Positions 9,938 to 17,850 of a stretch of DNA of 64,000 nucleotides are shown here, piece by piece. The DNA is from Candidatus Peribacteria bacterium. Lineage in GTDB: Bacteria > Patescibacteriota > Gracilibacteria > Peribacterales > Peribacteraceae. Each line of letters starts with the position of its first letter. The stretch's first letter is position 1. The notes under the pieces were generated by a model, which saw only the letters and a list, made by a program, of their open reading frames with translations, searched no databases and was not told the origin of the DNA. A program made the position numbers and the translations under genes. The stretch spans positions 1 to 64,000 of the forward strand of contig JBEPVF010000002.1 of assembly GCA_041691135.1 (NCBI GenBank). The letters are read 5' to 3'.

Positions 9938-9987
9938 GGGAAAAGGCTAGCGGAGGTCGGGTATCCGATCTAGGGCTGGGTTTGTAG

Positions 9988-10031
9988 AGGAGGACTCCGA
10001 AGATTCCGACGGCGCCGAAGAAACCGAAGAA
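9988..10031. repeat. Single arm of 9-nt-period array (AACCGAAGA-type)
   Basis: 10006-10027 is the exact reverse complement of 34290-34311. Confidence 0.8.
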
Positions 10032-10034
10032 CTG

Positions 10035-10152
10035 CCCCTACCCCGTCGCGGGGTAGGGGTGACGAGCAAAGCGAGTCGGGTGGGAGCAGAAGGCGAGCGC
10101 TCACGCTGGAGATGCTTCTCTGCAACCGCCACAAAGAAAGCGATAGCGCCCC
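10035..10152. repeat. REP-like palindrome cluster
   Basis: cccctaccccg-tcg-cggggtagggg hairpin; gccacaaagaaagcgatagcgccc resembles 141-164. Confidence 0.6.
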
Positions 10153-10206
10153 ATATGCAAATGAAGAAAGCCTAGAAATGATCACATACATCGGCGGACA
10201 CATTGG

Positions 10207-10260
10207 AAAAAACCCCGCACCGTTCTGATCTCCGTTCTTGAAGACCAGGATGGTGCGGGG
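10207..10260 (-). terminator. Intrinsic terminator of the candidate ncRNA
   Basis: Minus strand ccccgcacc...ggtgcgggg followed by TTTTTT. Confidence 0.7.
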
Positions 10261-10723
10261 AGTGTTCGCCTCGGTCGGAAGGACCAAGGTTGAACCGTTT
10301 GCAGCTCCGACGCAGCTGCTACTCCCTACCCTTGCGCGATTGGAGAGTCGCGCGCTCGTGTGTATGTGTGTGGGTAACCCGAGTGCTCGGGTATCGGCTC
10401 CCGTGATTGGCCCCACAGGAAGGGTAGTGTGTGTTTGTGTACCCTCCGACCGCTCAGAGCGAGACCACAACTCGCGAGGAGTCGTAGCCGTCCTGAGAGT
10501 CGAAGAGAGTGTCGGATCCCTCGCACCGGTAAACGGGGTCTACCAGGCGGAGGAAACCTCTAAGGGTCGCGGTGTCGTGACGCTAGAGGCAGGGAGGGAA
10601 GAGAGGCGACTGTGCGCGAAAAGCAAGCTCCAAATATGGAGTGTTCGCCGTCACCCCTCATCTCTCCCTGCCACATCGCTCGTGTGAACGACGGGAATTG
10701 AACGGTCCTGTAAATGAGCAAAT
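10207..10723 (-). ncRNA. Candidate large structured non-coding RNA of unknown family
   Basis: Extended -10 upstream, terminator downstream, at least 10 helices (several with G-U pairs on the minus strand), no credible ORF. Confidence 0.55.
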
Positions 10724-10729
10724 CCAACC

Positions 10730-10738
10730 ATAATAGCA
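10730..10738 (-). promoter_or_regulatory. Extended -10 promoter TGcTATTAT
   Basis: Reverse complement of ataatagca; not followed by a start codon. Confidence 0.55.
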
Positions 10739-10788
10739 GAAATTTTGAGAGTGCGCAAGGAGCCGTCCTCCGCTAGGATTGTGCCTCG

Positions 10789-11385
10789 ATGCCCTCAAAT
10801 CCCCCCCGTCCTGGCAAACTGGTTCTGCTGATCGGACCCAGCGGCGTCGGCAAGAGCGTGATACTGCTGGAGCTCCGAAAACGGCATCCGGAACTGCATT
10901 TCCCGCGTTCGGCCACGACGCGCGCGAAACGACCCGGCGAAGGGACCAATCTGTATCGTTTCGTCGACGATGCCACCTTTGATGATCTGATCAAAACCGA
11001 CAAATTCCTGGAGTGGGCATTCGTCCACGGCGGCACGCGGTACGGAACGCTGATCGAAGAAATCATTCCGGCCATCGAGGAAGGCAAGATCGTCATTCGC
11101 GAAGTGGATATACAGGGTTTCGATCATATTCGGGAAAATCCCCTCTTCGCCGGTCCCGCTGCTCCGTACCGTCTGCAATCGATCTTCATCCTGCCACAGA
11201 GCAAGGAGCAGCTGATCACTCACATTACTAAGCGCGCACCCATTGGAGAAGAAGAACTGGGACGGCGCCTGGAGAGCATGAAGCGCGAACTGGAACACAG
11301 CGATCTGTGCGACGTGCAGATCAAGAACGAAGAAGGTAAATTGGAAGAGACGATCAGACAGGTCGAGAACACCATTTTTAACTGA
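10789..11385 (+). CDS. gmk: Guanylate kinase
   Basis: GPSGVGKS, SATTR..RPGE, FLEWAFVHG..YGT. Confidence 0.95.
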   Translation: MPSNPPRPGKLVLLIGPSGVGKSVILLELRKRHPELHFPRSATTRAKRPGEGTNLYRFVDDATFDDLIKTDKFLEWAFVHGGTRYGTLIEEIIPAIEEGKIVIREVDIQGFDHIRENPLFAGPAAPYRLQSIFILPQSKEQLITHITKRAPIGEEELGRRLESMKRELEHSDLCDVQIKNEEGKLEETIRQVENTIFN

Positions 11386-11485
11386 CCATTCCGACACAGT
11401 GGCGCCACTTGCACAAAGCATTCTTTTTGCAGTGGGATGGCACGGGCAGTAGATTGCCAGAGTCCATATCTTTTCCTTTTTTACT

Positions 11486-12448
11486 ATGCGCTCTCTGCAA
11501 CAATCTTTCGTGCGGTCGGCATCGGCCGTCGGTGCGGTGATGATTCTGGGTTCGAGCCTGATCACTACGATCGCCACTGCCCAAGAGACCAGCACCTTGA
11601 ACACGACGTGTGCCAATCAGTGGGATTCTATTCAAAAAAATACGGCCGACGGCTCCCAGGCTCGCAAGGATGCCTTCGTTCAGTTCAATGCACAGTGTCC
11701 GAATTTCCTGCAGCGCCCAAAAACCAGCTCTTCTAGTCTGAGTTCTGTTTCCTCGCATTCTGAAGCAGGAAAACCCACTACAGCCGATTCCACCATCACT
11801 AGCGTCGACTGCGATACATTTTACCGCCAAGCCGTGGAACTTAAGCAGAAGGATCCCAACGGACCGGACTTCAAGCGCGTGACCGAGCTCTACCGTCAGA
11901 ACTGCGCCAACCGCCCGGCCACTACGACAACAACCGCTCCGCCGCCCACATGCGACGACTATCGCCGGATGCTGAAAGAAGTACAGACATATCTGCAGAG
12001 CACGACTGAGCCAGCCAAGAGAGATGTGATCCAGAAACGACTGACGGAGCTGACACCGAAAGTGCAAAGCTGTGATAACGGCATAACACCCGCAACATCT
12101 CTGACGACTAATACCAATGAACCGGGCAAGACGGAATGTTTGTACGTAAAAACGTCGGACGGTTGTCTGGTTGTCCGCTGTCCCGATCTGGGCGTGACCA
12201 TGAATTCCTGCGATGCCTACCGTTGCACGCAAGGCAACGCGAATTCCACGTCGTCAGTTGTCTTTCCCTCTGTGGATTCTTCTTCCAGTTCCAGCTCTGT
12301 TTCGTCGTCATCCGTTTCGTCCAGTAGCTCTGCACCGATCAAGAGCGTGAAAGTAGCTACCTCCAGTTCTTCCCGGGCAATCACAACCGAATACAAGGAT
12401 TACCGCGGAAAGTCGATCGTGAAGCCGCCACGGAAGACGAAGGATTAA
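11486..12448 (+). CDS. Secreted Cys- and Ser/Thr-rich hypothetical protein
   Basis: Signal peptide (ATA-Q), paired Cys helical modules, poly-Ser linkers. Confidence 0.75.
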   Translation: MRSLQQSFVRSASAVGAVMILGSSLITTIATAQETSTLNTTCANQWDSIQKNTADGSQARKDAFVQFNAQCPNFLQRPKTSSSSLSSVSSHSEAGKPTTADSTITSVDCDTFYRQAVELKQKDPNGPDFKRVTELYRQNCANRPATTTTTAPPPTCDDYRRMLKEVQTYLQSTTEPAKRDVIQKRLTELTPKVQSCDNGITPATSLTTNTNEPGKTECLYVKTSDGCLVVRCPDLGVTMNSCDAYRCTQGNANSTSSVVFPSVDSSSSSSSVSSSSVSSSSSAPIKSVKVATSSSSRAITTEYKDYRGKSIVKPPRKTKD

Positions 12449-12497: not shown

Positions 12498-12587
12498 AAG
12501 CACTGGATTGTGCATCGCATTCATCCATAAGAACTACTAAAGAGCCGGTTTTTGTTGTATACTAGTACGATACACAAAACACCCACC

Positions 12588-14798
12588 ATGCCTCCCGGTT
12601 TCTCTGTCAGCAGGCAGGCCAAACAGCGTATTGCCGCTGGTTTCGTTCTGTTTGTACTGACAGGAATCATCGTCTTAAAAATCACTGGTTCCTCGAACCA
12701 TCTGGAACGCACATCGGTTTCTCCGTTCCAAAGTTCTCTGAGCAAAGTCGGCATCTCCAAAAATGTCGATGTGATCAGCGTCGATTTTTCGGACCAGGAT
12801 AGCCAACCACTTGGAGAAAACAAAATTTACCTGGTGCACACGCCGGCTGGCTTCACTCCTCTCCCCATGGATGTGGCCCTCGGCATGAACGTCGATTACT
12901 TTGGATATAAATACTCAGACAGCAATGCGACGGAGGAAATCAAAAACAAAAATGCGCTCTTGTTCAGCCAACGGTTCCCCAGCGGAAATTTTTTCGCTTC
13001 CGGCAAATCGCGAAATCAGGATTCCACCCATGCCAACAGCCTGAGTCTGTTCGAACAGACGCGAGGCGTTCAATTACGACCGACCGGCAGCGGCGGTGTC
13101 TTGTTTGAGCCATCATCTCTTTACATCCTCATCATCAACGATCCGCAAGCAACCATCAGTCTGCATCCCGCACCTGTATGCGGTGACAACTGGAAAGCAG
13201 GCACTGAAGAATGTGATGCAGGGTCGCTCAATGGAACCGGGCCGGCCTTGTGTACAACGGAGTGCAAAATAGGTACCGCAGTCCCGTACGGAACAGGCAG
13301 CATATCCATTTCGGTACTGAACGCATCACAGATCGCGACGCAGTACAAAACGTACTTTATGAAGGGATGGGCAACAACCGGAAGAAACTGGCTTAAACAA
13401 GACTCAGGCGTCATGTACAGCTCAGGCAGCTGGATCAGAGACGATTCATGGCCCCAATCTTTTATCGATCTGACGGCACAGGAGGCATACTACGCGATGC
13501 TTGGCGCACGCATCGGCGTCGACTGGGCACTCGGCACCCAGGACATCGACATGATGGATGAACTGTCGAAGTACTACGTCAGTTTTTATCAGAACCGAGT
13601 GACGACGCTCGGCGATCTGCGCGCCATGCAAACCGGTTCCGGTGTCAGTAAAGTCCTGCTCGGCGCGAGTCAAGGAGCGGATTCTGTCCATACCATGATT
13701 TGGATTGAAAAATTGAGTGCCACCGGATCCCGATTACGTGACTGCTATCTGTGCAATGCACAGTTCTTACACCCGGCATCGCGACTGATCCGCACCATCG
13801 CTTCGTTGCCTGCGGCATCGCGCACACCGGACATGACGCAATTCGCAACGCTGTACACGCAGTGGATCGCGCGTGAACACGTTCTGCGATTTGATGCCAG
13901 CGTGGTGGCTACCTTGAAGAATCAACTGATAAAAAACGGTCAACCGGGTTTTGCCTACAGCGACGCGCATGTAATGGTCGTCGCGGCGGCAGCGGAAATG
14001 CTTGGTGCAAATCAGCGTGACCCATCTCTCGTCTCGCTCACTGCAGATGAGAAGCAACGGATGAAGGATTTGGTCGATGCAGGAATTACCTTGCTGCGAG
14101 CGAAACGGACAGTGTACCACGACACGCGTGATTTTGACGGCAACATTGTCGATAGCGCATCGTACTTCAATGGCGATTACGACGGCTATGTCGACAACGA
14201 CTATTCGGGTTACGAAGGACAGGCCTATCCGACGATCAACGAAAAATCGAATAAGCCGGGAATCAGCTGGGATGTGTCGCACTTCTTCCGTGTGCCGTTC
14301 ACCTTCCGTTCATTCATCGACAACAAAGGCGCAACCGGCACGGACTTCCCGACTGATGACGAGGTGCGACTGCTGGCCAATCAGTATATGTACCGCGTGT
14401 TCCGCGGCGATTTCCAAAAGCCGATCATCCGCAACTTCTTCGACGGCACGGATGGCTGGTATCGCGTCAGCTACCATCACACTGGCAAGGAAGATGCTAT
14501 CGCACCTTCGCTCTACTGCAGCATGTCAGATAGCGGTCGCTCCTGCCTTACCACCGCCGGCATCTATGCCTGGGGGGAACTGGCATCGCAGTACGCACCA
14601 CTTGCCACCTACGAAGCCGGACTCCTCAACCTGGCCAAGACCACTGACCCGGTGAACAATTGCTTCCAGTCGACCTGTTTCCGCGAGGTGCACTACAAGT
14701 ACGGATTGTCTTTCTCTTTCGTCGATAAAAATGGAAAGGAGCAGTATCCGTTTATGTTACTGACAATTCTGTCGGAGTTGGCGCTCGGGCAACAGTAA
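12588..14798 (+). CDS. Large membrane-anchored surface protein with a DUF4215-like Cys repeat
   Basis: N-terminal TM; CGDNWKAGTEECDAG...CTTEC; domain shared with the 19559 gene. Confidence 0.8.
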   Translation: MPPGFSVSRQAKQRIAAGFVLFVLTGIIVLKITGSSNHLERTSVSPFQSSLSKVGISKNVDVISVDFSDQDSQPLGENKIYLVHTPAGFTPLPMDVALGMNVDYFGYKYSDSNATEEIKNKNALLFSQRFPSGNFFASGKSRNQDSTHANSLSLFEQTRGVQLRPTGSGGVLFEPSSLYILIINDPQATISLHPAPVCGDNWKAGTEECDAGSLNGTGPALCTTECKIGTAVPYGTGSISISVLNASQIATQYKTYFMKGWATTGRNWLKQDSGVMYSSGSWIRDDSWPQSFIDLTAQEAYYAMLGARIGVDWALGTQDIDMMDELSKYYVSFYQNRVTTLGDLRAMQTGSGVSKVLLGASQGADSVHTMIWIEKLSATGSRLRDCYLCNAQFLHPASRLIRTIASLPAASRTPDMTQFATLYTQWIAREHVLRFDASVVATLKNQLIKNGQPGFAYSDAHVMVVAAAAEMLGANQRDPSLVSLTADEKQRMKDLVDAGITLLRAKRTVYHDTRDFDGNIVDSASYFNGDYDGYVDNDYSGYEGQAYPTINEKSNKPGISWDVSHFFRVPFTFRSFIDNKGATGTDFPTDDEVRLLANQYMYRVFRGDFQKPIIRNFFDGTDGWYRVSYHHTGKEDAIAPSLYCSMSDSGRSCLTTAGIYAWGELASQYAPLATYEAGLLNLAKTTDPVNNCFQSTCFREVHYKYGLSFSFVDKNGKEQYPFMLLTILSELALGQQ

Positions 14799-17573: not shown

Positions 17574-17651
17574 GCACCCGTAGTTCAGCCCGGATAGAAC
17601 GCCAGATTGCGGATCTGGAAGTCGTAGGTTCAAATCCTGCCGGGTGCACCA
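17574..17651 (+). tRNA. tRNA-Arg(GCG)
   Basis: GCACCCG/CGGGTGC acceptor stem, CCAGA-ttGCGga-TCTGG, GTTCAAATC T-loop, A20, CCA end. Confidence 0.93.

Positions 17652-17773: not shown

Positions 17774-17850
<77 letters not shown>

Follow-up and report, generated by a model that had tools for sequence, protein, structure and literature searches.

A large structured non-coding RNA gene between gmk and ansA in Peribacteraceae

What is encoded in the gap between two divergent genes was asked for a 64 000-nt stretch of DNA (the window) from a Candidatus Peribacteria bacterium (assembly GCA_041691135.1, contig JBEPVF010000002.1, positions 1 to 64,000 of the forward strand), in which gmk (plus strand, 10789-11385) and ansA (minus strand, 9937-8945), both identified by translation and Pfam, are separated by 851 nt. 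Within the gap, on the minus strand from 10725 to 10207, lies a 519-nt gene of its own for a structured RNA that encodes no protein. A first-pass annotation, prepared from the sequence, had proposed an undescribed large non-coding RNA at this place, and the proposal is upheld by the lack of an Rfam match, the lack of a conserved reading frame, strong covariation and a conserved independent transcription unit. That the locus is a genuine trans-acting structured RNA gene is considered very likely.

Read on the minus strand, the gap presents in order TTGCGC (10753-10758), a 17-nt spacer, the extended -10 element TGcTATTAT (10738-10730) with no start codon after it, the motif GGAUUUGCUC from 10725, about 500 nt of GC-rich sequence, and a nested hairpin followed by U6. 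The hairpin, CCCCGCACC...GGUGCGGGG, and its U6 tract (10207-10260, -31.9 kcal/mol) form a predicted intrinsic terminator, and the conserved 5' leader GGAUUUGCUCAUU occupies 10713-10725, with the transcript start placed at about 10725-10723. Across the homologues described below the promoter consensus is caTTGc-17-TGcTAtAaT (the TTG of the -35 element belonging to the caTTGc consensus of 36 homologues), and TAnnnT lies exactly 5 nt before the conserved 5' end or motif in 30 of 36. The leader motif GAUUUGCUC is present in 36 of 39 homologues, and a hairpin abutting a downstream run of four or more U was found in 31 of 39, in 28 of these within 100 nt by our reading of the distances. A simple consensus scanner missed both the promoter and the terminator at its thresholds (4 of 6 matches required per hexamer; terminator loop no longer than 8), so support for both elements comes from their conservation. 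Judged by sequence and conservation (-35 element, extended -10, spacing, GC hairpin and U run), the locus has the make-up of a sigma-70-type, intrinsically terminated transcription unit, and the promoter and terminator of the first-pass annotation are both present in the sequence, the GC stem and U6 ending at 10207. Comparison of the promoter with those of other stable RNA genes of the genome was uninformative.

Homologues were collected by sequence and by covariance model. BLAST with a 541-nt query matched 10 of 41 relatives, all of the same family and all beside gmk and/or ansA. Two covariance models of the 3' core were used, R1 being built from 9 sequences over the well-aligned part and R3 from 32 diverse matches. 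R1 gave one match each in 101 of 151 family genomes; R3 matched 118 of the 151 Peribacteraceae genomes, with representatives in 68 of 84 genera and a rate of 98 of 122 among the genomes of high quality, and with a weak second match in four genomes and a single match in the others. Outside the family, neither R1 nor R3 had any match in the 135 genomes sampled from 33 further families of the class, while the same-family genomes of that class sample were matched in 13 of 15 (R1) and 14 of 15 (R3) cases. An exact-pattern scan using one genome per species returned 25 loci, all titled Candidatus Peribacteria, Peribacteraceae, Peregrinibacteria or Patescibacteria, and the pattern had no match in viral contigs. 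Among the genomes searched, the RNA is restricted to Peribacteraceae and normally occurs once per genome. Its length from the 5' motif to the U run ranges from 345 to 573 nt (median 437, 34 sequences). The second match of genome G015 (C7:13560-13701, equal to 2061-2202 of locus L092, minus strand; 29.5-29.8 bits) was examined as a homologue and is probably not one, being a CA-rich stretch flanked by CCCC/GGGG hairpins and devoid of both the GCCGAU-G hairpin and hairpin K of the RNA.

The minus-strand minimum free energy fold of the RNA has -245.9 kcal/mol and z = -8.68, against z = -4.88 for the plus strand, none of 100 shuffles being as stable in either case. Supported helices of the 3' core and the C-D region (named after hairpins C and D) contain about 28 alignment cells with G-U pairs by our tally, which would be mismatches on the other strand. 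In the 3' core (31 distinct sequences) the paired cells make up 90.9%, and changes on both sides were counted at 17 pairs and in 100 cells; none of 500 shuffles reached this covariation, and slid controls were 36-46% paired. For the C-D region a small covariance model, R2, was used to align 37 sequences (36 distinct); here the paired share of cells is 90.2%, with two-sided changes at 11 pairs and in 37 cells, again with none of 500 shuffles reaching the score. The full-length MAFFT alignment A1 and A5 were too poorly aligned to be scored and were left out of the counts. The covariation foreseen in the first-pass annotation for homologues of the ansA-gmk region is thus present in both parts of the RNA.

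Covariation supports hairpins C1, C2, F, I and K and parts of B and G. Hairpin C (10557-10588) consists of an outer helix, C1, and an inner helix, C2, with a CGAC-bearing loop (10571-10579), and 4 of 5 pairs in C1 and 6 of 6 in C2 are changed on both sides (36 distinct sequences). All six pairs are likewise changed on both sides in hairpin F (10398-10422), and all six covary in hairpin K (10301-10319), the loop of which, GCGUCGG (10307-10313), is complementary to that of C2. Hairpin B (10589-10672) has a nearly invariant basal stem, GGCAGGGAG/CUCCCUGC, and a covarying upper stem; 16 pairs were predicted on 11 sequences and 6 of them are changed on both sides. The conserved, predicted single-stranded GCCGAU and hairpin G (ACCCGAG CA CUCGGGU) follow one another at 10377-10398, the stem of G being nearly invariant and its closing pair varying (GC 16, AU 7, UA 4, CG 1). 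Hairpin I (10334-10353), with a CUC-rich loop, was seen in individual folds as a clean hairpin in about 28 of 39 parsed segments by our count, with widely differing stem sequences; its permutation test was spoilt by empty segments and was not used.

A long-range helix, P1, closes the core that holds B, C1/C2, D, (E), F, G and I, and hairpins K and L and the terminator lie 3' of it. Its 5' strand, AAUUCCC (10693-10699), pairs with GGGAGU of segment J, the whole helix joining nucleotides of about 15-35 to J (AAGGGUAGGGAGU, 10321-10333), within which GGUAGGGAG is nearly invariant. A P1 duplex of -9 kcal/mol or below is formed in 34 of 36 homologues, and native partners stand at -16.5 kcal/mol vs -14.8 kcal/mol for swapped partners, a difference reached by none of 5000 permutations. 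Many compensatory variants of P1 were found, such as CUACCUUU/AAAGGUAG, CUACCGUUU/AAACGGUAG, CACUCU/AGAGUG and GCUCCC/GGGAGC. RNAalifold helices that pair J (GGGUAGGGAG) with internal CCC/UACCC segments were rejected, as they show no compensatory changes and have 8-19% unpaired cells.

The second long-range element is a contact between the loops of C2 and K, in which N-GAC-N of the former is complementary to N-GUC-N of the latter. The GAC of the C2 loop was picked by unpaired probability alone, without reference to the K loop. Of 28 combinations of the base that follows GAC with the base that precedes GUC, 18 are Watson-Crick (UA 8, CG 7, AU 3) and 4 are wobble pairs; for the flanking position on the opposite side the counts are 18 Watson-Crick and 3 wobble, likewise out of 28. 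In an uncurated MAFFT alignment of 26 sequences the six-pair C2-K helix is 72.4% paired vs 22-41% in slid controls, and its covariation score is 0.256 vs 0.159 in shuffles, with 1 of 500 shuffles reaching the observed value; a duplex-energy permutation test gave 13 of 5000. Covariation supports both P1 and the C2-K contact. The C2-K pairing may form within one molecule or between copies, two arrangements that covariation cannot separate.

The family also conserves two CA tracts in which every second base is A. Tract 1, ACACAAACACACAC, lies at 10427-10440 (consensus ACAaACAcAc in 32 sequences) and tract 2 at 10354-10375, where it is followed by a conserved GAGC; the two are near-identical, with the consensus ACAAACACACAC. 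Mean predicted unpaired probability over 24 sequences is 0.88 for tract 1 and 0.78 for tract 2, compared with 0.38 for the whole RNA, in line with the single-stranded state that the first-pass annotation had ascribed to them. Its further suggestion was that the tracts could be protein-binding or template sites. Their conservation and predicted accessibility are compatible with binding sites; a template role is unsupported, as neither a reverse transcriptase gene nor any other partner gene is conserved beside the RNA. Conservation outside the modelled helices extends to GCCGAU (preceding G), AUCCGAC (following D), the GAGC behind tract 2, and the 5' leader. For the leader no partner strand emerged, and on inspection its proposed pairing with GAGC showed no convincing covariation.

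The remaining segments are more variable or too conserved to covary. Hairpin D (10514-10556; UCCUCC.../...GAGGGA), which carries a genus-specific loop insertion and is followed by a conserved AUCC, is paired in 98.1% of cells and almost invariant in sequence, only its closing pair covarying. A conserved linker GAC and the variable hairpin E, long in this genus and absent or short in many homologues, occupy 10441-10513, and at hairpin L (10269-10289) a hairpin is present without conservation of its sequence. Three helices keep their exact sequence rather than covary, namely GGCAGGGAG/CUCCCUGC, CCCUCC/GGAGGG and J with its partner. J and the 5' strand of B differ at a single base, which hints, as an idea only, at sequence-specific recognition or partner exchange. 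As to the helices listed in the first-pass annotation, the minimum free energy fold contains apparent counterparts of B, G, K and L, which are seen in homologues; ggtagac/gtttacc and ctacgactc/gagttgtgg lie in genus-specific insertions, beyond the reach of covariation. The 12-nt direct repeat reported there is present exactly at 10259-10270 and 10638-10649 and is not conserved, its 3' copy occurring by our reading only in this genome and, approximately, in the homologue of genome G004; it is treated as chance or genus-specific.

The RNA was compared with known families. Rfam 15 at gathering thresholds returned only two tRNAs in the whole window, and no model, including those of OLE, ROOL, GOLLD, HEARO, raiA, 6S, RNase P, transfer-messenger RNA (tmRNA), signal recognition particle (SRP) RNA and group II introns, reached its gathering score at the RNA. 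At E <= 10 the locus gave only matches of microRNA-precursor type hairpins far below cut-offs, together with weak CRISPR-repeat and viral-pseudoknot matches, and a scan of 12 homologous loci found no family that covers the RNA. The first-pass annotation had seen no RNase P, tmRNA or group II signature, and this agrees with the Rfam result. The genome's RNase P RNA lies at C4:50140-50536 (159 bits) and its tmRNA at C2:121023-121434 (103.6 bits); a 6S RNA was tentatively assigned at C10:26530-26683 on the minus strand, barely over the gathering score (47.2 bits vs 46.4). The locus was rejected as the genome's RNase P RNA, tmRNA or 6S RNA because each was found elsewhere.

SRP RNA is generally described as a universal structured RNA, and neither of the models RF00169 and RF01854 matched anything in the genome or at the RNA locus, so the RNA was considered as a deviant SRP RNA. 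RF00169 had no match in 41 sampled genomes of the class. The Ffh M domain (PF02978) was found nowhere in this genome and in none of 41 genomes of the class above the cut-off, the SRP GTPase domain (PF00448) scored at most 19.7 bits in the genome, below the cut-off, and no long open reading frame (ORF) of the genome contains a DTAGR motif. The identification as SRP RNA was dropped, since Ffh and FtsY are also missing, the loss is class-wide, and a lack of two SRP subunits in many bacteria of the candidate phyla radiation (CPR) is on record (PMC8080830), whereas the RNA is confined to one family. The SRP itself is apparently missing in this genome and in 40 relatives of the class, an absence that in view of that paper is probably already known.

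Whether the RNA is instead a part of its neighbours, a coding sequence or a chance fold is answered largely by the homologous loci. A leader or riboswitch controlling ansA or gmk would be expected at a fixed position and orientation upstream of its gene. In 24 of 39 distinct loci ansA does follow the RNA in the same orientation, and in 31 gmk stands upstream and divergent; the RNA also ends in a terminator, as attenuators do. No such fixed arrangement was found, however: 4 of the 39 loci have the RNA turned round between these two genes, 1 has a convergent ansA, another 4 have ansA upstream on the far side of gmk, and ansA was not found in the fetched flanks of 6. As the RNA can be inverted and the position of ansA varies, the RNA is not a leader or attenuator of ansA. 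In the window a further 270 nt lie between the end of the terminator (10207) and the start of ansA, and to our knowledge the RNA is larger than any riboswitch. The cis-acting reading is already largely refuted by the locus orientations and is held to be very improbable. Still less credit is given to a protein-coding origin or to a GC-rich fold that arose by chance. Two ORFs do overlap the locus, one of 149 aa on the plus strand (10238-10687) and one of 166 aa on the minus strand (9970-10470), but Pfam found nothing in either, and the longest open frames of the homologues (77-152 codons) vary in strand and length, so that the conserved protein-coding signature that would have told against the first-pass annotation is absent. 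Over the 3' core and the C-D region, moreover, indels fall in hairpin loops and substitutions are compensatory. Taken together, cis-regulation, coding and chance receive at most a very small share of the probability.

The explanation preferred as a whole, and regarded as probable, is that of an independent structured RNA gene whose product most likely serves as a trans-acting protein scaffold. The scaffolding or sequestering mechanism as such, reached by elimination and analogy, is put forward tentatively, at somewhat less than an even chance. The RNA would act in trans as a folded particle and would be the scaffold or sequestering partner of one or more proteins, which would recognize the pair of CA tracts together with the invariant helices of GGGAG type, so that it would work as an RNA-protein complex resembling OLE, 6S or CrcZ. 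Several points weigh against this explanation. Synteny pointed to no partner protein: the neighbours conserved beside the RNA are gmk, ansA and a phosphoglucomutase gene (pgm) alone. A protein sponge of the CrcZ/CsrB type would carry repeated single-stranded binding motifs and have its cognate protein encoded in the genome; two conserved, predicted unpaired CA tracts are present, and neither an Hfq nor a CsrA motif was detected by a crude six-frame regular-expression search with short motifs, a weak test confined to these two proteins. Related genomes are not independent, by which the shuffle statistics overstate significance, and as the helices of J with internal segments have no compensatory support, the multi-helix core is only partly resolved. 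The transcript ends, too, are inferred from the sequence. Finally, 33 of the 151 family genomes have no R3 match at E <= 0.001. When five such genomes were inspected with filters off in flanks of about 1.5 kb around gmk, three held only weak matches (E = 0.0011, 0.0071 and 0.013), which keep the CA tracts and a GUAGGGAG-like motif, and the family counts are therefore lower bounds.

If the RNA worked without protein, being a ribozyme or a particle that assembles itself as reported for ROOL, GOLLD and OLE, the GAC/GUC loop-loop pairs and the interchangeable GGGAG/CUCCC strands would be contacts between molecules. The size and complexity of the RNA (345-573 nt, with ten or more helices and a contact between distant loops) and its many conserved nucleotides outside the modelled helices would suit such a role, covariation is compatible with intermolecular as with intramolecular pairing, and J differs by one base from the 5' strand of B, so that strand exchange is possible on paper. 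Direct evidence is lacking, however, no self-cleavage signature or known ribozyme family was matched, and partner exchange is argued from invariant sequences, which lie beyond covariation testing; a novel large ornate RNA class peculiar to a single CPR family, be it ribozyme or self-assembling multimer, is accordingly judged unlikely. If it were true, the CA tracts would line grooves of sequence-invariant G-rich helices. A trans-acting base-pairing regulator, in which the CA tracts would be seeds for GU-rich sites in mRNAs or other RNAs, is more doubtful again. CA-rich seeds are known in some small RNAs, and the two conserved tracts are predicted to be accessible, but the genome shows no excess of exact 9-mer complements to the tracts (121 for tract 1 and 122 for tract 2, against about 146 and 186 expected by our arithmetic on genome size), small RNAs of the seed type are much smaller and less ornate than this RNA, and the weak motif scan gave no Hfq.

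By its size of more than 300 nt, its many compensated helices, its conserved unpaired nucleotides and its lack of coding capacity, the RNA is a new family within a known kind, the large ornate bacterial non-coding RNAs, and has no Rfam match. OLE RNA (ornate, large, extremophilic) of Bacillota measures several hundred nucleotides, many of its helices covary and its unpaired positions are strongly conserved; it occurs in one copy per genome in one lineage and is proposed to act as an RNA-protein complex, its dedicated partner genes adjoining. As OLE is generally described, the Peribacteraceae RNA resembles it in size, covarying helices, conserved unpaired nucleotides, single copy and lineage restriction; it differs in belonging to another phylum, in having only gmk, ansA and pgm as neighbours and in showing no match of sequence or structure to the Rfam model. 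ROOL and GOLLD are often phage- or tRNA-gene-associated and patchily distributed, unlike the present RNA, whose chromosomal gene is inherited vertically, keeps a fixed neighbourhood and had no match in viral contigs. Both are presented as large ornate bacterial RNAs of unknown function (10.1101/2024.12.08.627333). The present RNA is likewise large and ornate, and its C2-K loop-loop contact could play a like part in self-assembly as reported for them.

The raiA motif RNA of Bacillota and Actinomycetota is also a structured RNA with its own promoter and terminator and a conserved intergenic position; it is about 200 nt long, its phyla are others, and its model does not match here. CrcZ, CsrB and 6S are stand-alone protein-sequestering transcripts with repeated single-stranded motifs, which in CrcZ are A-rich 'CA motifs'. 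The Peribacteraceae RNA shares with them the stand-alone transcription unit and repeated, predicted single-stranded motifs, and differs in having only two tracts, set in a large, rigidly conserved fold, and in that the genome has a separate candidate 6S RNA. Literature searches, with subscription journals and supplements outside their reach, returned no report of a lineage-specific structured RNA in Peribacteria, Peregrinibacteria or CPR. Look-up of terms found these taxa unmentioned in a 2026 preprint on mapping noncoding space, and in the 2016 Peribacteria genome paper the same kind of look-up gave no occurrence of noncoding, intergenic or tmRNA.

Further features were observed around the locus. 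A perfect palindrome, CCCCTACCCCGTCGCGGGGTAGGGG, lies at 10035-10059 between the RNA terminator and ansA as the sole copy in the genome, with a weak resemblance to a CRISPR repeat model (E = 4); downstream of the RNA in the same-genus genome G002 there is a palindrome-like hairpin with a compensating change (CCCCTCCCCC...GGGGGAGGGG). In two same-genus genomes, G004 (locus L002) and G002 (locus L004), the RNA is adjoined on its 3' side by a short ORF which, translated by eye, appears to have a lysine-rich N-terminus followed by a glycine-zipper-like hydrophobic stretch, and which is not visible in the window. Beyond gmk, the ORFs at 11378-12232 (minus strand, 284 aa) and 12552-14798 (plus strand, 748 aa) have no Pfam match; a frame overlapping the former stands beside the RNA in only 2 of 25 named loci, and none matches the latter. 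Two tRNA genes are located at 17574-17648 and 17774-17847 (plus strand), and tRNA genes also occur in the flanks of the homologous loci L028, L030, L039 and L055.

Peribacteraceae are tiny groundwater bacteria within the CPR (Patescibacteria), and bacterial RNAs of this size and complexity are rare. Large RNAs with known roles are ribozymes or cores of RNA-protein machines, such as RNase P, tmRNA, group I and II introns and SRP, and the orphan classes OLE, ROOL, GOLLD and raiA have each grown into a research topic of their own. The short natural versions of the RNA (345-370 nt) make probing, cryo-electron microscopy and pull-downs practical, the secondary-structure model offers a long-range helix and a loop-loop contact that can be put to the test, two covariance models are ready for use, and the RNA is a good genetic marker for Peribacteraceae. 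Its single copy and vertical inheritance in most Peribacteraceae genera point to a basic cellular role and not to a mobile-element function; were the less likely protein-independent class to prove true, the RNA would form a particle of essential-like and lineage-defining character in ultra-small bacteria from which the signal recognition particle has been lost.

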